A stretch of DNA of 9,206 nucleotides, taken from positions 1 through 9,206 of the IMG/VR virus record IMGVR_UViG_2534681940_000023, one strand, 5' to 3'. Source of the DNA: a virus (taxonomy: Duplodnaviria; Heunggongvirae; Uroviricota; Caudoviricetes). Positions 1 to 9,206 of this stretch are shown in pieces. The position numbers and the translations under genes are program-made. The stretch's first letter is position 1. Each line of letters opens with the position of its first letter. The notes below the pieces were generated by a model. It searched no databases. It saw nothing but the letters and a program-made list of their open reading frames with translations, and was not told where the DNA came from.

Positions 1-108
1 AGGACACGCCCCTGCATAAACAGGGGCATCAGCTCTGAACCTGGCCTGAACAATACGATCCCCATACGCGGGGCAATTTCAGGGGTCAGTAGTGCTCTCA
101 CGGTCACC

Positions 109-918
109 TCAATGAACGGTATCGAGCAGCTTTAACAGCTCAGGGAATCGGGATTCGAAGAAATGCGGCTGCGTCTCGCGCGGATTTGCGGGACTGGTGA
201 TGTTCTTGCCGAACATGCAGCCTTTCGCTGTCAGCGACCAGAATTTTTTGATGTTGTTAATCGCGGTACGGCTGTATCGTTCGCGCTGCTCGACGATCCC
301 CAGCTTCACCATCTGGTGATATGCCTGATTAGCTGTCAGGCGGATACCATACTGCTTCAGCAGTGCACTCAGTGACAGCGTGGGACGGCTTGAGCCATCA
401 GGCGCGTCAGCAGGAGCATCAATGGCATAGCGCGGTGCCAGATTCGGTAAGCCAACAGCCTCCTGGAGTTTCTGACAGGCACCAAGCACTGAAGAGTTAG
501 ACAGGTTTAACTCCCGGCGCATAAAGTCCAGCAGAATCACGCCAGCCTGCATCTTGTCAGCAGCCTGCCCGGATAATTTTTCCGGTGCGCTGGTTACCAT
601 ATCGAAAGTACGGATCACCTTCAGATGGAATGACGGGCTGATCCACATTGCATAGGCATACACCAGTTCCTTGCAGACATACGTTCCCCGTTCATTTCCC
701 CCATGAATCACACTCACCGGGTCAACACCCAAATTCTGGGTGTTGGTCAATTCATGAACAAGCTCAGCAGTCTGTTGGCTGGAAAGAAACTTTCCTGGCT
801 CCTTGGTTCTGGCATTTGCACCAGATGCTACTGCTGCGCGATGCAGATCGTTCAGGCTGTAACGCCCATAAGCATCACGACGAACTTCAATACCATCAAT
901 GACCATCAGATTATTCAT
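109..918 (-). CDS. KilA-N domain protein (Bro/antirepressor-like), 269 aa; start moved to internal ATG at 918
   Basis: N-terminal region (GTYVCKELVYAYAMWISPSFHLKVIRTF) matches the KilA-N DNA-binding domain pattern. GAGGAG Shine-Dalgarno sits 7 nt upstream of the ATG at 918; the track ORF start at 1020 would overlap rusA and has no RBS. Confidence 0.8.
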   Translation of the reverse strand: MNNLMVIDGIEVRRDAYGRYSLNDLHRAAVASGANARTKEPGKFLSSQQTAELVHELTNTQNLGVDPVSVIHGGNERGTYVCKELVYAYAMWISPSFHLKVIRTFDMVTSAPEKLSGQAADKMQAGVILLDFMRRELNLSNSSVLGACQKLQEAVGLPNLAPRYAIDAPADAPDGSSRPTLSLSALLKQYGIRLTANQAYHQMVKLGIVEQRERYSRTAINNIKKFWSLTAKGCMFGKNITSPANPRETQPHFFESRFPELLKLLDTVH

Positions 919-937
919 ACTTCGTTTCTCCTCTTGA

Positions 938-1327
938 TCAGGCGGCTGCACCCGCCGTTTTCTCGTACTTACTGATAGTGATCTCGACCTTCCCTCCCGG
1001 GATAACCGGTCCCCACTCAACCAGCATTCTTTTCACCTGACTGTCGTCTTCCCACACACCCGCATGGGTCAGGGCGTCAAACAGCGCCTTGTTATAGTTG
1101 TCCAGATCGCGGATCCGGTTATCCGGCGGAAACAACACGATCTCCACTGAAGCAGGTGCCGACGTTGGTTTCGGCAGACGACGTAACTGCTCAACTATTG
1201 CTGCACACGCCGCGCTCTGGAATTTGCGCCCCGCCGCGCTTATCAGGCTCTTACCTGCAAACGCCCCTTTGTTGGGGTGTCGCCAGTACGTGTTCACGCT
1301 GGGCGGAAAAGGCAGGATCAGCTTCAT
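938..1327 (-). CDS. rusA: RusA Holliday-junction resolvase (crossover junction endodeoxyribonuclease)
   Basis: 129 aa; the RIRDLDNYNKALFDALT acidic motif and overall pattern fit the RusA family. Start ATG overlaps the upstream gene's stop as ATGA. Confidence 0.85.
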   Translation of the reverse strand: MKLILPFPPSVNTYWRHPNKGAFAGKSLISAAGRKFQSAACAAIVEQLRRLPKPTSAPASVEIVLFPPDNRIRDLDNYNKALFDALTHAGVWEDDSQVKRMLVEWGPVIPGGKVEITISKYEKTAGAAA

Positions 1328-1650
1328 ACTTTCAGGCCCCTCTCATGTAACCAGTGGGTTGCACGCAGCCTTGCGTTTTCCTCACCGGCAAGCAGTGCGC
1401 GGATAATCCCGACCGCCTCGCTGTCGTCGTCCTTCACCGCGGTATGAAGCGTTATCCCCCGGGCCACGCCACGCTTTATCGTGATGACGCCTTTTTTCTC
1501 CAGTGCGCGAAGATGCTCCACCGCTGCATTCACCGAACGGTATCCCAGCATGGTTGCCACCTCCTGATTGGTTGGCGGGAAGCCACGTTCTTTCTGATAA
1601 GAAATCAGCATATCCAACACCTGCTGCTGGCATTGAGTTAACGTCGTCAT
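1324..1650 (-). CDS. LexA-like N-terminal winged-helix DNA-binding protein (no peptidase domain)
   Basis: 108 aa; QQQVLDMLISYQKERGFPPTNQEVATMLGYRSVNAAVEHLRALEKKGVI resembles the LexA DNA-binding domain. ATGA overlap with the Dam gene stop. Confidence 0.6.
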   Translation of the reverse strand: MTTLTQCQQQVLDMLISYQKERGFPPTNQEVATMLGYRSVNAAVEHLRALEKKGVITIKRGVARGITLHTAVKDDDSEAVGIIRALLAGEENARLRATHWLHERGLKV

Positions 1651-2300
1651 GCCGCCATCTCCCTTACCAGTTTTTCTGCCTGCTGGCGAACCTGCGCCAG
1701 AAAGGCCTCACCACATGCCTCAAGTTCATCGCGCCCGATGTAGCTGATTGCCGGTCCCTTCCAGGTCTTGTCGAAAACAGCAATAGCACCAGCGAAGAAA
1801 GCGCCTGTCGGCACCTGCTTCTCATCCTTCGGGATAAACCAGGCAGGCAGTTCAAAACCAATACGCCCGCGAATAAAAGCAATATGATCTGCATCTTCCG
1901 GCCACCACACTTCGCTGGTGGCAGCTTTGATCAGGAAAACATAGCGCCCGCCTTTATCACGCATGGCACTGGCATGCTTCATGATGTAACGCATGCCGGT
2001 GATGTATTGCCCCTCATGCTGACTGGCGCGGCTGTATGGGGGATTACCAAAGGCAGCACCTTTAAGCTCCGCAAGACGTTCTGACCAGTCATGCGCCAGC
2101 GCGTTGTCTTCCGCCGTGTAATACGCGGCACATTTGGCGTTATCACCGTCAGTGAACAGATCCAGAACAAACGGACCAAACAAGGTGTTAATTCCCCAGA
2201 AAATGTTGTCCGGCGTGCGCCACTGATCGCCCACTTCCTTCAGTTCATGGGCTGGTTTGTTCCGCAGTTCTACCAGCGCCTGGCAATATTTATTACTCAT
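1647..2300 (-). CDS. Phage-type DNA N6-adenine methyltransferase (Dam family)
   Basis: 217 aa; NPPY catalytic motif (GNPPYS) and the FVLDLFTDGDNAKCAAYYTAEDNALAHDW region are typical of phage Dam methyltransferases. Confidence 0.8.
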   Translation of the reverse strand: MSNKYCQALVELRNKPAHELKEVGDQWRTPDNIFWGINTLFGPFVLDLFTDGDNAKCAAYYTAEDNALAHDWSERLAELKGAAFGNPPYSRASQHEGQYITGMRYIMKHASAMRDKGGRYVFLIKAATSEVWWPEDADHIAFIRGRIGFELPAWFIPKDEKQVPTGAFFAGAIAVFDKTWKGPAISYIGRDELEACGEAFLAQVRQQAEKLVREMAA

Positions 2301-2392
2301 TAAGCCCCCACGTAAAAAGCATCCGCAATGTCTCCGGAAGTACAGCCCGGATGGGCTTCAATGAATTTCTGAACGTCATTTAACAGACTCAT
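2300..2392 (-). CDS. Hypothetical small protein (30 aa, MSLLNDVQKFIEAHPGCTSGDIADAFYVGA)
   Basis: Not in the ORF track (too short). ATG at 2392 is preceded by a GGGGGTG SD-like sequence; its TAA stop overlaps the Dam ATG by 1 nt (TAATG). It exactly fills the gap between the O-like and Dam genes. Confidence 0.3.
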   Translation of the reverse strand: MSLLNDVQKFIEAHPGCTSGDIADAFYVGA

Positions 2393-2394
2393 GA

Positions 2395-3375
2395 TCACCC
2401 CCTGAATCCTGCCGGGATCTGGCTGTAGTCCACGTTGTCGTAACTGGCTTTGAAGTACGGGTCTTCACGTTTTTCTATGTGCGTGCTGACGGACGGCGAT
2501 AAGCGCAGGGAAAGCTCATCCCATTTTTCCCGCAACTTCGACGGGCTGAGCACGTTACGGCACCAGAACGGATCGCGGCTGACGCGGCTGTACATCTCGC
2601 AGATTTGTTTGTGAGTACGACCATCCTGCACACACATCAGGCGAATTTCGTTTGCCCATGCTGTCCAGTTCGGTTCTTTGGGACGAACCACCTCGCCGTC
2701 ACATTCGGCGGCCTGCTCGTACAGGGCGATGATTTTTTTCCAGAGCCACTGTGCGCAGGTCAAATCATCCTGCGTTCCCCACTGGCGCTTTTTAGGGCTG
2801 AATACAACCGCATCAGGATGGCGAGTTAAAAACTCCTGTTCAGCCGTTTGCGTGTCCGGTTGCGAAGCGTCCGGACGAGAAGAGGTTTTATTCTCTGTAG
2901 TAATCTCTGTTGTATTCTCTGTAAGATCGAAATTGGTTTTCCCTTCTCCGCGGCGAGGGGTTTCCCGTGTCCGCTGTGAAGGCTTTCCCTCCTCCGCGAA
3001 ATTGGGTTTTACAGTTTCCCGAAAACGGGTTTCCCCATTTCGGGAAAACTGATTGTTTTCATTGATAAGTTCATTAAGGCGCTCACAATCTATACGGTAG
3101 AACATTTTGTGCTCAAGACGCTTGTTGGTTTCAACCAAAATGCCTCTGGACACAAGATGCTTACGCGCTACAGCCTGTTGTTCAAATGTAAGTCCGGTTT
3201 CGTGTTGTATCTCTTCACGCGTTTTATGTACGCCTTCCGCTGCATGTGCTTTATCCTGCCAGTAAAAAATCTGACCAAAGAAAATAACAGCGTGCGGACT
3301 TCCCATGTATTTAACGAGCCCAGGGTAATAAGCAACCGGATGCCCAAAATCGAGCAGAAGATCAGACGGACGCAT
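2395..3375 (-). CDS. Replication initiation protein, O-like N-terminal region with DnaT-like C-terminal domain
   Basis: Central linker is encoded by iteron DNA, as in lambda O. The C-terminus ...YSQIPAGFRG resembles the C-terminal end of E. coli DnaT as I recall it. Likely start is ATG 3375 (GGGAGG SD 5 nt upstream); the track start at 3381 is GTG. Confidence 0.75.
   Translation of the reverse strand: MRPSDLLLDFGHPVAYYPGLVKYMGSPHAVIFFGQIFYWQDKAHAAEGVHKTREEIQHETGLTFEQQAVARKHLVSRGILVETNKRLEHKMFYRIDCERLNELINENNQFSRNGETRFRETVKPNFAEEGKPSQRTRETPRRGEGKTNFDLTENTTEITTENKTSSRPDASQPDTQTAEQEFLTRHPDAVVFSPKKRQWGTQDDLTCAQWLWKKIIALYEQAAECDGEVVRPKEPNWTAWANEIRLMCVQDGRTHKQICEMYSRVSRDPFWCRNVLSPSKLREKWDELSLRLSPSVSTHIEKREDPYFKASYDNVDYSQIPAGFRG
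2890..3050. repeat. Putative replication origin iterons inside the initiator gene
   Basis: Three 12-bp-period repeats with CTCTGT core (2893, 2905, 2917), then five ~23-bp-period repeats GG(G/C)TTTCCC..CCGCG starting 2935, 2957, 2981, 3004, 3027, including the palindrome CCCGAAAACGGG at 3018..3029. Confidence 0.6.
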
Positions 3376-3595
3376 AGCCACCTCCCAGACGCTTAAACAT
3401 TTTCCCGGACTGAAAAGCCACCAGCGGATAACTCAGGGTATGAGTACGCCCCTGAACCTGACAGACAACCTTCTGGCTTTCTGTGTTGACCAGACAAACC
3501 CGCAGAACGTGACCGTTGCTGGTGGTGAACCACTGCCCCACACGGGGGCAGTGGTTGTATCGGTGATACAGAGAATTCACAACACGACGAATCAT
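3362..3595 (-). CDS. Hypothetical protein (77 aa)
   Basis: ATG start overlaps the upstream stop as ATGA; its 3' end overlaps the O-like start. No recognisable family. Confidence 0.5.
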   Translation of the reverse strand: MIRRVVNSLYHRYNHCPRVGQWFTTSNGHVLRVCLVNTESQKVVCQVQGRTHTLSYPLVAFQSGKMFKRLGGGYASV

Positions 3596-3786
3596 GGACG
3601 CACCTCCGCCGTTGTGATGTATTTAACCGGGCTGCCTTTCATTGCGATGATTTCACACATCTCCGCTGCTTTACGTTCCGCTGTTTTCCTGGATTTATAG
3701 CGGCGGTGCCAAACAGACGTATCCGTGCGAACTGATACATCGTTTCTGTATTCCGTAGTGGAGATGATGATTTCGTAACTAATCAT
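3592..3786 (-). CDS. Hypothetical protein (64 aa)
   Basis: ATG start overlaps the Rha stop as ATGA (translational coupling). No recognisable family. Confidence 0.5.
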
Positions 3787-4346
3787 GGGCGTACCTCCTT
3801 GTCAGAACCATTCAGCCTGGAATCAACAAGTGCAGCACCAAAAACAGCATCACCTACACGGTCGTACAGTTTGCCAGCCAGCGGAGATTCAACAGCCTTA
3901 AGCATGGGATAAAGCTGGCTTCTCCAGATTTGATGGATTTCACGCAAATGCAGGTATACGCCTCTGGCGTTTTGTGCGACAGATGACATCTCAGCCGCAC
4001 CAGCTCCTGATAAGCTCCTCTCCATCTGGTTAAAGGCATTGATGTATGCCTCTTTGAACCGGGCGGCACGCTTGCCAGTGAAGCCCATAGCAAGGAATGC
4101 GAAGCCGTCGCGGGTGATTTGATAGCAGGGAAGTTTGCGAGTACCGCCGTTGGGCTGGCGTACCAAAATTGATGTCTCCGCAAAATTGCGGGCACAAAAC
4201 TCTGGAGAACAATCCAAAATGCGGATCTTTTTCAGAACATCGTCATGACGTTTAGAGAAGAAGTCAGCAACAGCCAAAGAAGATGTAACAGCCTGACCAT
4301 CAACGATGGCAATTTCAGGTTGAGAGAGAGTTGGGAAAGTAGTCAT
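3783..4346 (-). CDS. rha: Phage regulatory protein Rha (187 aa); C-terminal part of the 553-aa track ORF
   Basis: [32 protein letters not shown] is the Rha N-terminal domain signature, and it starts about 10 residues after the ATG at 4346, as in typical Rha proteins. AGGGG lies 9 nt upstream. Confidence 0.8.
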
Positions 4347-4638
4347 GGTGACAGCCCCTATGTTGAATTCAAAGAACTCACCACATGGGACGCCAATCAC
4401 AGAGGTGGTGAGACGTACAGGGTTGGCGTAACCGGTCAACATAGAACCCGGCGCATCTTGCGATGCCCCTGCACGCCCCACCATAATTTGGACGTAGCAA
4501 TGCTCATGATACGAAAAGACCGCATGAGCGCGGTTATGCTCTATATTGAATTCCAGGACGCCAATCCCGACACCCGCTTTATAAGGTGCCTGAACAGTGT
4601 AACGTCCCGAAATTGAGGAATCAATGTTTTGATAAAAT

Positions 4639-5031
4639 TCAGCGATTAGACGCTTCTTTTCTACCCATATTAACTTTGAACAAGAGCTCCATACGACGAG
4701 TCCAGACACCACGTTCTTTGAGTTGTGCTCTGGCTTCTTCGCGCTCAGATACGGAAGTTCTGACAATACGATTTCCAGCCAGATTGCGGCGATATTCTCC
4801 AAACGCGACTGACTGAAGGTATGCAGCGGAGCTTTTGTACTGATAGATGGCTCTTCGAAGGCTGTTTTTATATTCCTTAGGTATATGTCCGAGATCGGCA
4901 AAAAGCTCATGAACGATATCGTGAACAAGCGGAACAACTTTGTATGGAATAACAAAGAAGCTTTCTGGATAGCGTTCAGCCAATACTTTAATGATTTCTT
5001 TATTTGCAAGATGCCTTGCTTTTCTTCCCAT
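4639..5031 (-). CDS. ProQ/FinO-domain RNA-binding protein (130 aa)
   Basis: [17 protein letters not shown]...[18 protein letters not shown]...GNRIV...EEARAQLKE parallels the ProQ N-terminal FinO-like domain (KEVIAFLAERFP...LRSALRLYTSSWRYLYGV...EHARKQLEE, from memory). GGAG SD about 10 nt upstream of the ATG. Confidence 0.75.
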
Positions 5032-5091
5032 ATACCATTCTCCATTACTCCAGATATCAGAATGATATATCCAGGTTCAAGCAGTTCAAGC

Positions 5092-5444
5092 TTATGCTGG
5101 TGCTTCGCACTCAACAAAATCACGACGAAACAACCACAGCGGGCTGAAGCATTCATGCGGATAACCATCACGCAGGTAAATAACCCGCTGTGTTTCCGGT
5201 TCCCAACGAATGACTCTGACGGGCACTCCGTAGTGATCTTTGAACCAGCGGTTAACTTGTTGCAAAGGACTGTCTCCTTCTGCCGGTTGAAATCACCCAC
5301 AGCCCACTCTGCAAATCTGTGGGTTACAATTTCCCTGTCACCTGGTACATTCACTGCATAGCAATACTCCACCTTCGCTTTTCCACCCGGTACAGGAAGC
5401 GCAATCAGTTGCGAGCGACGGTAGTGTGTTGTTAAACTGTTCAT
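5092..5444 (-). pseudogene. Frameshifted gene of unknown function: N-terminal 50-60 aa in one frame, C-terminal 57 aa in the -1 frame
   Basis: ATG 5444 is ATGA-coupled to the upstream gene and encodes a protein-like [52 protein letters not shown], after which that frame turns low-complexity. The -1 frame from about 5292 to the TAA at 5092..5094 encodes [56 protein letters not shown]. Confidence 0.45.
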
Positions 5445-6082
5445 GCGTTAGTTTCTCCACAACCAGAAGCAATCGACGCCACGACGCCCGGAGCTGCACA
5501 CTCGCGGGCGTTACTCTTTTCCGGCGCACAAAAAACACGAAATAACAGTGTTAAATGCTCCTTCCACTTCGCCATTACTTGGTAGCTGTTCTCTTCGATT
5601 TGCTCACGCTCAGCCTGGTCAATAACTCCATCAGCAGTTGCCTTGCGTAAGTACTGGGAATGCTTGCCAATCCATTCTATTGACTCCATCAGCCGCTGAT
5701 TAATGTCACCATTGTCAATGTCATCAATGACCACCAGCGGCACAAACACCCCATTACTACGACGGGCTATTGCATCCGTTACATGCCTGGTACCACTGGC
5801 ATCCTGTAAAACCATGGCCCACTCAAGTGGAAAAATTTGATCCCCACCGCTACGCAGTCTGTTATGCAATTGATCTTTTGCTGGGGTGATATCATCAGAT
5901 TTATACAAACCAAGAATTTCTGCTGCTTCCTCATAGCCATGAGGTAAATCAGCAATCGTTCTTCGTATTGCTGCCACCAGCCATGCTGGTTGCTTATCAA
6001 CTTTCCATTCAGGTTCTTTACCCACGTTTAAGCCCTCATATCTGTGGTTTCTGTAAATCGATTTATCCATTAGATTTTTCAT
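5441..6082 (-). CDS. Phage regulatory protein in the CII/YdaT position (213 aa); function assignment tentative
   Basis: Sits immediately downstream of cro-like and upstream of the replication genes; the AAEILGL segment looks helix-turn-helix-like. Start taken at ATG 6082 (alternatives 6070 or the track's 6139, which would overlap cro by 77 nt). Confidence 0.5.
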
Positions 6083-6263
6083 AAAGCTCAGGTTTAAATG
6101 GCAACCGTCCGCAAGTTCTATATGCAGCCTCTGCTGCACGTCCTTTTGGAATTAACTGGCCAGGACGGTTTCGCCACTGATAAACGGCTTCAGTTGTTAT
6201 GCCGAAAAAAGCAGCAACTTTCTCAATGCTGCCGAAGTAGCTTTCGATATCGTCAGTCGTCAT
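6063..6263 (-). CDS. cro: Cro-like HTH transcriptional regulator (66 aa)
   Basis: Small HTH protein (SIEKVAAFFGITTEAVYQWRNR) divergent from the cI-like gene; GGAGGG SD upstream of ATG 6263. Confidence 0.75.
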   Translation of the reverse strand: MTTDDIESYFGSIEKVAAFFGITTEAVYQWRNRPGQLIPKGRAAEAAYRTCGRLPFKPELYEKSNG

Positions 6264-6360
6264 ATGCCCTCCAAACTAAGTTTTATTAGATGTTAATTAT
6301 CAATCTATCTTAGGTCAATAAAAACTAAGATTACTTAGTAATTAAAGAAATGGTGCTCCT
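6264..6360. promoter_or_regulatory. Divergent promoter/operator region (OR-like) between cro and cI
   Basis: AT-rich 97-bp intergenic region with two 16-bp operator-like sites, ACTAAGttttATTAGA (6275..6290) and the palindrome ACTAAGattaCTTAGT (6324..6339). Minus-strand TTGACC-17-TAACAT is a candidate PR. Confidence 0.6.
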
Positions 6361-6987
6361 ATGGAAACGGTTGGTCAGCGTATAAAAGCTCTGAGAAGAG
6401 TTACCAGAACGTCCCAGAAAGAATTGGGTAAATTTTGTGGAGTAAGTGACGTTGCTGTGGGGTACTGGGAGAAAGACATCAATGTCCCTGGTGGGGAAGC
6501 ACTTTCAAAATTAGCGAAGTTCTTCAATACGTCAATAGATTACATTCTTTATGGTGCGGAGTTTGAAGGCAAACTCGTCACAAACATGCGCAGAGTTCCT
6601 GTAATCTCGTGGGTTCAGGCTGGGCAGTTTACTGAGTGCAGGACAGCAGAAGTGTTTAGTGAAGTAGACAAGTGGGTAGATACATCATTAAAGATTGGTG
6701 ATAACTCATTTGCATTGGAGGTTAAAGGCGACTCCATGACTAACCCTAACGGCCTCCCAACAATACCAGAAGGCGCAACAGTGATTGTAGATCCTGATGC
6801 AGAACCCCGGCATGGAAAAATAGTCATCGCTAGACTTGATGGAACAAACGAAGCCACAGTAAAAAAATTAGTTATCGATGGCCCTCAAAAGTTTTTAGTG
6901 CCATTAAATCCCCGGTACCCCAACATTCCGATCAATGGTAATTGCCTCATCATTGGTGTAGTCAAAGGAGTTCAATACGAACTCTAG
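6361..6987 (+). CDS. cI-like prophage repressor, HTH N-terminal domain with S24 (LexA-like) autopeptidase C-terminal domain
   Basis: 208 aa; N-terminal HTH; Ala87-Gly88 candidate cleavage site (VQAG); Ser125 in GDSM and Lys168/169 (VKKL) match the S24 catalytic dyad. Confidence 0.9.
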   Translation: METVGQRIKALRRVTRTSQKELGKFCGVSDVAVGYWEKDINVPGGEALSKLAKFFNTSIDYILYGAEFEGKLVTNMRRVPVISWVQAGQFTECRTAEVFSEVDKWVDTSLKIGDNSFALEVKGDSMTNPNGLPTIPEGATVIVDPDAEPRHGKIVIARLDGTNEATVKKLVIDGPQKFLVPLNPRYPNIPINGNCLIIGVVKGVQYEL

Positions 6988-7004
6988 CCCCCCTTTTCTC
7001 TAAC

Positions 7005-7075
7005 CAAAACACCGAACTAAGAAAAGTTTGGTGTTTTCTCTTGCCATCAAAACTAAGTTAAGTTAGATTTTATAT
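7005..7075 (+). promoter_or_regulatory. OL/PL-like operator-promoter region downstream of cI
   Basis: Two more ACTAAG-N4-NTTNGN sites (7016..7031, 7052..7067). Candidate promoter TTGCCA (7041..7046), 17-nt spacer, TAGATT (7064..7069), overlapped by the second site. 8-bp inverted repeat AAAACACC/GGTGTTTT (7005..7012, 7029..7036). Confidence 0.5.
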
Positions 7076-7164
7076 CAAAGATAACGAACAGGCAGGACGC
7101 CCACGAAGTAGCCGACGGTGGCGTATGAATGACCGGATGATTCGCGCATGGCAGGAGAGTGAAT

Positions 7165-7533
7165 ATGGATGGCAGTATCGACAACCAACGAGATGCCTGG
7201 CTTGTGGTGATTGAAGCAGCAAAAACTGCATTAAGCCAAGTTGAAAGCAGTAACTACAGAACAGTTAAACAAATGGCTTTGGGCTCTATTATCTATGCCT
7301 TTGAAAGGCTGGACTTTGATTTTGAAGCAACGAGTATTCTGTCAGAACAACATGAAAAAATGAATAGAGAAGACGCCGCAGCCTATATCGGCGTAGAAGC
7401 GCAAACCTTAGCTAATTGGGCTAGCACAGGAAAAGTTCGAATACCTTTTTTAAAAATCGGTAGAAAGGTTATTTACCTAAAAAGTGATCTTGATGCCTAT
7501 CTTGCCTCATCGAAGGCAAATACCACCAAGTAG
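7165..7533 (+). CDS. HTH (AlpA/excisionase-like HTH_17-type) DNA-binding protein, 122 aa; first gene of the leftward-type early operon
   Basis: C-terminal REDAAAYIGVEAQTLANWASTGKVRIPFLKIGRKVIYLKSDLDAYL resembles an AlpA/Xis-type HTH. AGGAGA SD 6 nt upstream of ATG 7165 (the track start at 7159 is GTG). Confidence 0.6.
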   Translation: MDGSIDNQRDAWLVVIEAAKTALSQVESSNYRTVKQMALGSIIYAFERLDFDFEATSILSEQHEKMNREDAAAYIGVEAQTLANWASTGKVRIPFLKIGRKVIYLKSDLDAYLASSKANTTK

Positions 7534-7739
7534 CTCACGTACCTACCACCTCGCCTGATGTGGCTAAAAGCAGGCACATAACAGCTAAGTATTTTCAACC
7601 AGAGAGAATCCTTAGCGTTGTGGTGAATGCGGCTCAGCGCACGCGGGTTAAGGTTGAGACTGACAGTCGACCTTCTGTGGATACCCACCCGCCTGGTGTG
7701 CAACCTTCGCCAGGCACCGGGAGGCACCCGGCACCACAA

Positions 7740-7799
7740 CAGCCACTGCTTTGGCGGTACCAGTTTGTACACTTGCTTCCGGCTGGTACCGCTCTTTTT
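7740..7799 (+). ncRNA. dicF: DicF-like small RNA (candidate)
   Basis: GCTTTGGCGGTACCAGTTTGTAC... closely resembles the core of E. coli DicF (GTTTGGCGGTATCAGTTTTAC..., from memory) and ends in an intrinsic terminator. The 5' end is not determinable from sequence. Confidence 0.45.
7754..7799 (+). terminator. Rho-independent terminator of the DicF-like sRNA
   Basis: 10-bp GC-rich stem GCGGTACCAG (7754..7763) pairing with CTGGTACCGC (7783..7792), 19-nt loop, then TCTTTTT (7793..7799). Confidence 0.6.
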
Positions 7800-7888
7800 A
7801 CAAAACAGAGAAGAGCATCACCGGACGACGGGCTCATAACCCAATCCACCCGGGCGGCTGCCACCGCAGGTGCTCTTCTCTGTTTTGT
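7800..7888 (+). repeat. 18-bp perfect inverted repeat (ACAAAACAGAGAAGAGCA / TGCTCTTCTCTGTTTTGT) with 53-nt spacer; candidate long RNA hairpin
   Basis: Left arm 7800..7817 is the exact reverse complement of right arm 7871..7888. The stem can extend with G-U pairs into the terminator U-tract. It lies 35-50 nt upstream of the RBS of the next gene. Confidence 0.8.
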
Positions 7889-7936
7889 GGAGAAACCAAC
7901 CGACCTTGCAGGGTCGATATGATGAGGAGCAGCAAA

Positions 7937-8299
7937 ATGGCTAGCGAACGCAGTACTGATGTGCAGGCATTTATCGGGGAGCTGGACGGCGGCGTATTTG
8001 AAACCAAAATCGGCGCTGTTCTCAGTGAAGTCGCTTCAGGTGTGATGAACACGAAAACCAAAGGGAAGGTCTCGCTCAACCTGGAAATCGAACCGTTTGA
8101 TGAGAACCGTGTGAAAATAAAACACAAACTCTCATATGTTCGTCCGACTAACCGCGGGAAAATTTCCGAAGAAGACACCACCGAAACGCCGATGTATGTC
8201 AATCGCGGTGGTCGCCTGACTATTCTGCAGGAAGACCAGGGACAATTACTGACTCTTGCCGGTGAACCTGACGGAAAACTCCGCGCAGCAGGTCATTAA
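7937..8299 (+). CDS. Hypothetical protein, 120 aa (YfdP-like, by size and context)
   Basis: GAGGAG SD 7 nt upstream of ATG 7937; the track ORF start at 7751 runs through the sRNA and hairpin and is rejected. Identity with CPS-53 prophage YfdP is from recollection of size and gene order only. Confidence 0.6.
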   Translation: MASERSTDVQAFIGELDGGVFETKIGAVLSEVASGVMNTKTKGKVSLNLEIEPFDENRVKIKHKLSYVRPTNRGKISEEDTTETPMYVNRGGRLTILQEDQGQLLTLAGEPDGKLRAAGH

Positions 8300-8364
8300 T
8301 ATCGTTCTTAATTAACTGATTATTTATCTCATCACTGAATATCCTTATATAGTGAGGACTTATT

Positions 8365-9189
8365 ATGTCTCAGAACTTAGACGCAACCGCAATTAATCAA
8401 ATCCATGCCCTTATTTCTGCTCAGGGTGTTAATGAAATTATTAGTAAGATTGGTGCCGATGCTGTGGCATTGCCTGAGAATTTCCGCATTCATGATCTGG
8501 AAAAATTTAATTTAAATCGCTTCCGTTTCCGTGGTGCGCTTTCCACTGCCAGCATCGATGACTTTACCCGTTATTCTAAAGATCTTGCAGATGAAGGCAC
8601 CCGCTGCTTTATCGATGCCGATAATATGCGTGCCGTCAGTGTGCTTAACCTGGGTACTATTGATGAACCAGGTCACGCAGATAACACCGCCACTCTCAAA
8701 CTGAAAAAGACAGCACCGTTCTCTGCTCTGTTGTCTGTTAATGGCGAGCGTAACTCCCAAAAGTCACTGGCAGAATGGATTGAAGACTGGGCCGACTACC
8801 TTGTGGGCTTTGATGCTAATGGTGACGCCATTCAGGCAACCAAAGCGGCTGCGGCGATCCGTAAAATCACAATTGAAGCGAACCAGACCGCTGATTTTGA
8901 AGACAATGACTTCAGCGGCAAACGCTCCCTGATGGAGTCTGTCGAAGCGAAGACCAAAGACATTATGCCAGTGGCATTTGAATTTAAATGCGTTCCGTTT
9001 GAAGGCCTGAAAGAACGTCCGTTTAAATTACGCCTCAGCATTATCACTGGCGATCGTCCTGTACTGGTTCTGCGCATTATTCAGCTGGAAGCGGTGCAGG
9101 AAGAAATGGCTAACGAATTTCGTGATCTGCTTGTTGAGAAATTTAAAGACAGCAAAGTAGAAACCTTTATTGGTACTTTCACCGCCTGA
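8365..9189 (+). CDS. Hypothetical protein, 274 aa (YfdQ-like, DUF2303-type, by size and context)
   Basis: GTGAGGA SD upstream of ATG 8365; clean protein-like 274-aa ORF. Identity with CPS-53 prophage YfdQ is from recollection of size and gene order only. Confidence 0.7.
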
Positions 9190-9206
9190 TTTCATTACTG
9201 CAAATG

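Follow-up and report, generated by a model that had tools for sequence, protein, structure and literature searches.

The spacer at positions 7534-7936 of a 9,206-nucleotide stretch of viral DNA (Caudoviricetes; positions 1-9,206 of IMG/VR record IMGVR_UViG_2534681940_000023, hereafter the window) lies between the stop codon of a gene for an HTH_17-domain protein (7533) and the ATG of yfdP (7937, not 7938), in what is the immunity region of a lambda-like phage. The main element of this spacer is a divergent, operon-embedded member of the known STnc100/PasD family, followed by a DicF-type terminator. An earlier sequence-only reading of the same DNA had proposed a DicF-like small RNA core at 7740-7799 and had treated the hairpins upstream of it as incidental. 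These hairpins were instead found to make up the main element, which gives a full-length, although sub-threshold, match to the STnc100 covariance model, and the proposal of a small-RNA-type module with its own intrinsic terminator was supported.

Family match and structure of the domain

When the 551-nt region 7450-8000 was scanned permissively with Rfam models (E ≤ 10), the STnc100 model (RF02076) matched positions 7599-7801 along model positions 1-206, with a score of 36.3 bits and an E value of 2.5e-6, or 4.1e-5 when the whole window was scanned. A relative of the same subfamily, L007, scored 43.1 bits on this model, and the loci of PasD1 and PasD2 scored 37.7 and 41.4 bits, values that are also below the cut-off. 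The window copy contains an outer helix (P0) followed by the GGUGAAU junction of the family, a pseudoknot in which the strand following P1 pairs with the loop of the penultimate hairpin, a terminal CCGGG-AGGCA-CCCGG hairpin next to the 3' strand of P0 (7717-7731), and, like most copies of the family, a linker and then an intrinsic terminator (Table 1). The two hairpins pointed out in the sequence-only reading, GCCTGG (7691-7696) with CCAGGC (7710-7715) and CCGGG (7717-7721) with CCCGG (7727-7731), are present as described and correspond to P3 and P4.

Relatives were collected with a search pattern consisting of the two most striking motifs of the domain (GGTGAAT ... CCNGGAGGCACCNGGCAC), which matched more than 120 viral contigs containing 83 distinct cores. 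A common architecture could be seen in these cores, with P0, an AAU junction, P1, a hypervariable middle section, P3, P4 abutting P0, and the pseudoknot. Across 33 diverse relatives, P0, P1, and P4 were 98% paired, compared with 41-48% in slid registers, and 0 of 500 shuffles reached that value. Covariation is informative at the three outer P0 pairs and at the one free P4 position, all of which are unconstrained by the search pattern; at this position of the P4 stem, G-C is replaced by U-A in dicB-type copies.

MAFFT alignments of different subfamilies were offset by +/-1 column at P3 and the pseudoknot, and shuffle and permutation tests that do not depend on the register were therefore used. 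A first control with non-cognate pseudoknot strands was confounded by common CCAG/CUGG cores, and stricter tests were adopted. In these, the mean Watson-Crick run between cognate strands was 5.97, compared with 4.28 for permuted partners (z = 12.6, with 0 of 5000 permutations as high), and a pseudoknot of at least 6 bp was possible for 59% of cognate pairs versus 4.9% of non-cognate pairs. The two strands pair through many unrelated sequences across the family. In L047, which is 74% identical overall, the domain is almost invariant, and the local hairpin favored by minimum-free-energy folding is weakened while the pseudoknot partner is intact. The pseudoknot, defined in the present analysis, is unmentioned in the published accounts of PasD (PMC8550237) and STnc100 (PMC5331693); the pseudoknotted fold, the repeat-unit architecture described below, and the physical linkage of DicF to STnc100 all appear to be previously undescribed.

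STnc100 and PasD themselves have been reported to be of common ancestry (2026 preprint, 10.64898/2026.05.13.724894). PasD1 and PasD2 of enteropathogenic Escherichia coli E2348/69 are Hfq-stabilized RNAs of 172-173 nt with targets identified by RIL-seq; Northern support for the pair rests on one shared probe, and the linker and the 3' end contain the predicted seed, UGUGAG, and the coordinates of the RIL-seq chimeras (PMC8550237). Both PasD loci were found to have P0, P1, P3, and a perfect 7-bp pseudoknot (AAUGAUC with GAUCAUU), without P4. According to its published 5' end, PasD1 starts at the first base of P0, downstream of a TTGACT-17-TTAAAA promoter. In strain EDL933, 11 transcribed STnc100 copies have been described, one of them Northern-positive (PMC5331693). 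Of the canonical copies, approximately half are preceded by an ATTGAC-N17 promoter of their own, predicted to start transcription at P0, and many copies of the family are located in Q-controlled late regions. Tandem STnc100 arrays of two to five units were also observed (L014 2265-3380, - strand; L090 4349-5513, + strand; L027 3121-3798, + strand). Each arrayed unit has its own terminator and many have their own promoter, neighboring copies differ in the middle section and in the pseudoknot sequence, and in L014, L027, and L006 the arrays are found just downstream of phage tRNA genes.

Coding status of the spacer

The description of the spacer as a GC-rich, ORF-poor, non-coding stretch with no credible open reading frame (ORF) was borne out. 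GC content is 0.52-0.585 over 7500-7900 versus 0.385-0.475 in the flanks, and folding exceeds chance at both 7595-7805 (z = -2.7) and 7796-7945 (z = -5.2). The spacer ORFs had no match in Pfam, and those in PHROG were partial and confined to families without an assigned function, namely phrog_33599 (E = 2.7e-18, covering 37 of 62 profile positions) and phrog_3651 (E = 6.3e-27, 41 of 162). The matched sequences are translations of window positions 7560-7922 (+) and 7634-7864 (-), and both families probably go back to ORFs that were mis-called when phages were annotated. It is barely conceivable that the spacer codes for a small protein, whether from the 120-aa ORF on the + strand or from the 76-aa or 91-aa ORFs on the minus strand. 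These PHROG matches and the hypothetical proteins annotated at the spacer in some phage records would speak for one, but the frame, length, and fusion partner of the ORFs all differ in the relatives L007 and L047, the PHROG families are derived from gene calls, and conservation tracks RNA helices with compensatory changes.

Linker, terminator, and flanking hairpins

The strong intrinsic terminator that had been noticed in the sequence, ending at 7799, was confirmed: it has perfect 10-bp arms (7754-7763 and 7783-7792), a tail CTCTTTTT extending to 7799, and a predicted dG of -21.2 kcal/mol, and it was missed by a simple terminator scan because of its 19-nt loop. An unrelated terminator sequence occupies the same position in L047. 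The linker between domain and terminator is the most variable part of the module, with TTTATGCTGTGTGTAGTCCT in close relatives, and by analogy with PasD and DicF it may serve as a seed.

The domain and terminator are flanked by further hairpins. The leader hairpin is a shortened version of the long hairpin at 7800-7888; its sequence ACATAACAGCTAAG resembles ACAAAACAGAGAAG at 7800, and it is kept in all window-type relatives. The long hairpin carries the apical motif CGGGCTCATAACCCAATC at 7829-7846 and shows one compensatory change in L047, from G-C to A-U. It is found directly 5' of STnc100-like domains in five other contigs (L026 and L130-L133), in one of which, L026, another DicF-type terminator precedes it. 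Even where the stems are wholly different, the motif at the apex, CGGG(A)CTCATAACCCAATC (window 7829-7846; L026 10129-10147; L130-L133), is kept, which suggests that the motif itself is functional, for example in contacting a protein or an RNA. By analogy with the biogenesis of DicF (PMC5069750), the long hairpin is a candidate RNase III site for read-through transcripts. The sequence TTGTGGAGAAACC that follows it is probably, judging from its likeness to the sequence after the same hairpin in other contigs, the degenerate start of a lost second domain.

A tRNA or transfer-messenger RNA (tmRNA) identity was considered and dropped, as ARAGORN called neither in the window nor in its relative L047. 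In L047, T-arm-like sequences GGTTCGATTCC and GTCCGTTCAATTCGGAC, in which no tRNA was called by ARAGORN, were observed shortly before the domain (7060-7160); these may be tRNA or attachment-site remnants.

Relationship to DicF

Of the DicF-like core proposed for 7740-7799, the 5' arm of the terminator and the position in the operon held up, and the covariance-model match and the ftsZ-pairing loop did not. The sequence TTTGGCGGTACCAGTTT (7750-7766) is identical to K-12 DicF at 16 of 17 positions and to a DicF variant from L087 at 17 of 17. The Rfam DicF model (RF00039, gathering score 48 bits) gave no window match at the gathering score and none in the whole window at E ≤ 1, and the covariance-model search that had been suggested as a check found nothing in 7450-8000 at E ≤ 10, nor in the relative L007. 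The positive controls, K-12 DicF and the L087 variant, scored 76.7 and 70.5 bits. Natural DicF intermediates in other prophages scored 39.1, 38.1, and 29.2 bits; they contain TGCTGTGTGTAGTCCTGGCGG, which also occurs in the linker and terminator of the subfamily to which the window copy belongs. The window terminator is homologous to DicF-type terminators in its 5' arm, and the resemblance does not extend beyond that arm.

It is the 3' region of DicF that pairs with the ribosome-binding site of ftsZ (PMC5069750). In the alignment, the loop and 3' arm of DicF, UUUUACUCCGUGACUGCUCUGCCGCC, are replaced by UUUGUACACUUGCUUCCGGCUGGUACCGC in the window, in agreement with the earlier remark that the loop region differs, and the ftsZ-complementary region is absent. 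Unconstrained RNAduplex pairing with ftsZ, a crude test, gave z = +0.2 for the window, no better than shuffles, versus -1.0 and -1.7 for true DicF; nothing suggests that the window RNA targets ftsZ. The DicF-like leading TTT is specific to the window and absent from its closest relatives, and, together with the different terminator of L047, this points to selection for the presence of a terminator and not for DicF sequence. The terminator does lie where DicF would be expected, inside the untranslated part of a repressor-controlled early-left (dicB/immC-type) operon. A true DicF orthologue, active in repressing translation of ftsZ and in blocking division, would account for the 16-17 of 17 nt in common with the DicF 5' arm, the shared operon position, and a linkage to an STnc100-like domain like that of dicF; with the ftsZ-pairing region replaced and no model match beside controls of 70.5 bits or more, it is extremely unlikely.

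A composite repeat unit

A recurring unit, common in lambda-like prophages, consists of a hairpin, the STnc100/PasD-type domain, a variable linker, and a DicF-type terminator; in the window, one complete unit is followed by the remnant of a second. The dicB-type copies of the domain all lie directly after DicF or a DicF variant and match the Rfam STnc100 model below threshold, at 28-36 bits. The unit also explains the dicF-dicB spacer of the K-12 Qin prophage. This spacer (L002 3447-3590), which forms the 5' untranslated region of dicB, is an un-annotated STnc100-like domain; its outer helix spans 22-25 bp (z = -5.4), and the published RNase III-made 3' end of 72-nt DicF (PMC5069750) maps inside this helix.

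A more speculative proposal, in which we have rather little confidence, is that the 5' domain of STnc100, PasD, and the window represents an undescribed class of structured, factor-binding RNA with stacking like that of a tRNA T-arm and acceptor, and that DicF and STnc100 are pieces of one ancestral unit. The pseudoknot and the terminal hairpin stacked on the closing helix could then bind a host or phage factor, lambda-like phages would duplicate, truncate, and re-seed the unit through linker swaps, and DicF would be its linker-plus-terminator piece.

Genomic setting and distribution

Identity to Escherichia virus mEp460_4F5 is 99.6% in region 7450-8000. O_R and O_L of this immunity type are defined by an operator-like repeat, AAACTAAG-N-TTAG, with four copies in all, and the O_L copies overlap a P_L-like promoter at 7041-7069, the sole sigma-70-like promoter match on the + strand and the likely source of transcription through the spacer. 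With operators and promoter at 7015-7073, the RNA module is situated ~540 nt downstream of a P_L-type promoter. The operon continues in the order HTH_17 gene, module, yfdP, and yfdQ; in the Qin prophage the order is dicA, ydfABC, dicF, and dicB, the module occupying the position of dicF. The HTH_17 protein had no significant match, and no close solved relative, in a sequence search of the PDB, and the product of yfdP (ATG 7937) matches PHROG family phrog_204 with 169 bits.

The module is kept from ~7545 to ~7900 despite different upstream genes, and yfdP and yfdQ follow it in both L007 and L047. At the HTH_17 position (the "N position"), L007, whose cI is the same, encodes a 164-aa membrane protein in reverse orientation (L007 7308-7802, - strand), and L047 has other genes. 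In approximately 1,160 complete E. coli genomes, the match covers at least 80% of the query. The CPS-53 prophage of K-12 was considered as an annotated reference copy and dropped; the module is absent there, with a match of only 28 nt before yfdP.

Elsewhere in the window, a C4 antisense RNA (80.1 bits) and isrK (54.1 bits) are arranged head to tail at 4401-4589 (-). They lie inside a 553-aa open frame (3783-5444, -) in which a Pfam Ash match at residues 282-376 covers exactly both RNA genes and is followed by a Rha anti-repressor domain. This locus, in the rightward operon, looks like a P1 immI or Gifsy isrK-anrP-type module, and the Ash match may be a translation of the RNA genes.

Table 1. 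Features of the RNA module and its surroundings in the window
Feature	Position	Strand	Basis or remarks
STnc100/PasD-type pseudoknotted multi-hairpin domain, 125 nt	7617-7740	+	Rfam match and covariation
Outer helix P0	GTTGTGGTG 7617-7625 with CACCACAAC 7732-7740	+	pairing, covariation
Junction AAU	7626-7628	+	
P1 region	7628-7647	+	
Pseudoknot, 7 bp	AAGGTTG 7650-7656 with CAACCTT 7701-7707	+	
P3	7691-7696 with 7710-7715	+	
P4, loop AGGCA	7717-7721 with 7727-7731	+	CCGGG-AGGCA-CCCGG; abuts 3' strand of P0
Single-stranded linker AGCCACTGCTTT, putative seed	7741-7752	+	analogy with PasD and with DicF 5' seed
DicF-type intrinsic terminator, tL1 position	7753-7799	+	10-13-bp stem, 19-nt loop, tail CUCUUUUU
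Leader hairpin	7577-7622	+	fold z = -2.5; 3' arm overlaps 5' strand of P0
Long hairpin, 25-nt arms	7800-7888	+	inverted repeat; fold of 7800-7889, dG -46.6 kcal/mol
Probable decayed second-domain start TTGTGGAGAAACC	7885-7897	+	cf. ...TTTCTGTTGTGGTGAATGCGG following this hairpin in L130 and L133
Small hairpin	7901-7916	+	fold
P22-Cro-like gene	6063-6263	-	Pfam
Operator-like repeats AAACTAAG...TTAG	6273-6345		between cro-like and cI-like genes
cI-like repressor gene	6361-6987	+	Pfam
O_L-like operators and P_L-like sigma-70 promoter (TTGCCA-17-TAGATT, 7041-7069)	7015-7073	+	repeat and promoter scan
HTH_17-domain protein, 124 aa, first gene of early-left operon	7159-7533	+	Pfam HTH_17, 37.1 bits; context, outside RNA module
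yfdP ribosome-binding site GAGGAG	7924-7929	+	upstream of ATG 7937

Proposed working and alternative readings

The reading that we favor, with somewhat better than even confidence, is that of an operon-embedded, trans-acting small RNA module that is made on prophage induction and is also the first terminator of the early-left operon. The P_L-like promoter at 7041-7069, presumably repressed by CI, would transcribe the module on induction or infection. Most transcripts would stop at 7799, where the terminator is seen as a structure and its efficiency is presumed; the module would then be the first early-left terminator and would restrain yfdP and yfdQ. As suggested by PasD and DicF, the transcript would then be processed, probably within the AU-rich leader (near 7590-7616), to a stable RNA of ~185-205 nt in which a folded, protected 5' domain would precede the exposed linker (7741-7752) and a terminator hairpin with an Hfq-binding U-tail. 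This RNA would act in trans through pairing of the linker, as PasD does, and ftsZ would not be an expected target in the manner of DicF. For read-through transcripts, the 72-nt form of DicF made by RNase III suggests cleavage within the long hairpin. What is observed here is how the module is structured, to which family it belongs, and where it lies in the genome; for transcription, processing, Hfq binding, and action in trans of the window RNA, PasD and DicF serve as the models from which we infer them.

Several points weigh against this proposal. The match of 36.3 bits to the STnc100 model is lower than the Rfam gathering score of 47, and P1 of the window is imperfect, as two of its pairs are non-standard when aligned to the covariance model. 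GGUGAAU and P4 are invariant in part because of the search pattern, and several invariant motifs are not independent evidence because the pattern fixes them. No sigma-70 promoter-like site of its own was found for the window copy in 7100-7620, so that a discrete RNA hinges on putative processing. The linker is short, at 12 nt, and the tail of the terminator has only 5 U. Finally, a conserved pseudoknotted domain is unusual for a simple Hfq-dependent base-pairing RNA and is unexplained by pairing in trans.

The missing promoter is also consistent with a module that acts only in cis, in which a tL1-type terminator and structures for processing or stability set the expression of yfdPQ and any short RNA is a by-product without targets. 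The module lies between operon genes and travels with yfdP and yfdQ, the dicB-type copies are in the dicB 5' untranslated region with no terminator after them, and in L047 the position of the terminator is kept and its sequence swapped. We regard a role confined to cis as possible but rather unlikely, as the 125-nt domain is conserved far beyond the needs of a terminator and is common to stand-alone, promoter-driven, Hfq-bound RNAs, and the variation of the linker resembles that of small RNA seeds. It would also be conceivable, but is distinctly improbable, that the domain is a sensor or factor-binding element (riboswitch-like, or bound by RNA polymerase or another protein) that decides whether the terminator is used. 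The layout is that of an attenuator, leading from promoter and operon through a pseudoknotted domain with invariant junction bases to a terminator, AAGGUUG has alternative partners at 7672-7679 and 7701-7707, and the leader hairpin competes with P0. However, no conserved anti-terminator pairing was apparent by eye across the subfamilies, in which linkers and terminators are unrelated, although no formal test was made. L047 weakens the local alternative hairpin and keeps the pseudoknot, PasD accumulates in its terminated form, and no Rfam riboswitch was matched. A riboswitch-style anti-terminator pairing was seen by eye in one subtype only and was set aside as a likely coincidence.

The location of the domain downstream of P_L and directly upstream of a terminator, in an operon with no evident N-like gene in the N position and an exchangeable first gene, also recalls the put RNAs of phage HK022 (for their mechanism, see PMC9378689). 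A processive antiterminator of this kind would modify RNA polymerase to read through 7799 and later terminators without N. This is very unlikely here, because the promoter-bearing relatives terminate right after the domain and accumulate as RNAs of ~173 nt, the opposite of antitermination, and many copies are in Q-controlled late regions. Moreover, the put-type sequence and the two-stem fold of ~70 nt were not found in the window, no sequence similarity to HK022 putL or putR was found, and the rightward operon within the window has no second copy. A supposed resemblance to HK022 put was dropped, the window motifs being absent from the HK022 immunity region and putL and putR being dissimilar.

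Implications

At least ~1,160 complete E. coli genomes and many phages carry the module without annotation; it is sometimes mis-called as hypothetical proteins, and its recognition would allow such false genes to be removed. It extends the STnc100/PasD family past what the curated model detects and into the early operons of lambda-like phages. DicF and STnc100/PasD, which have so far been treated separately, are neighboring parts of one repeat unit, and this unit offers a structural reason for the RNase III end of 72-nt DicF. A separate function for the pseudoknotted domain, if it has one, would make it a widespread and unstudied phage RNA element. The window copy is not expected to inhibit cell division as DicF does. 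The STnc100/PasD family is already known and the window copy is common; the fold, the architecture of the unit, and the link to DicF are open to experimental test.

Comparison with known systems

The HK022 putL and putR RNAs are, like the window domain, structured RNAs transcribed early from a lambda-like leftward promoter and situated upstream of terminators. They differ from it in that no sequence or evident structural similarity is found, the window domain is present in a single copy, and its relatives terminate immediately after the domain.

Much closer are STnc100, PasD, and EcOnc13 of enterohemorrhagic E. coli, which have in common with the window copy an outer helix closing a multi-hairpin domain that starts with GGUGAAU, P1, the pseudoknot, a linker and intrinsic terminator, a prophage-borne location, and end-to-end alignment to one covariance model. 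The CCGGG-AGGCA-CCCGG hairpin abutting the outer helix is shared with STnc100, whereas PasD itself is without it. The window copy is set apart by its score below the Rfam cut-off (36.3 versus 47 bits), the lack of its own promoter, a P1 of the GCGGCUCAGCGCACGCGG type, the DicF-type terminator, and the long hairpin that follows. It also lies in an early-left operon, whereas the others are in late regions near Q, tRNA genes, or stx.

DicF of the Qin prophage differs in that the window RNA is not matched by the DicF model, has a replaced ftsZ-pairing loop and 3' arm, and is predicted to be approximately four times longer, and in that the order of domain and then terminator in the window is reversed in Qin. 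The two are alike in forming an RNA at a terminator within a long untranslated stretch of a repressor-controlled early-left operon, in the TTTGGCGGTAYCAGTTT arm, and in the physical link to an STnc100-like domain. In DicF biogenesis, RNase E makes the 5' end, termination or RNase III makes the 3' end, and the RNA binds Hfq (PMC5069750); by analogy, the window RNA would likewise be expected to arise by processing together with termination or RNase III cleavage.

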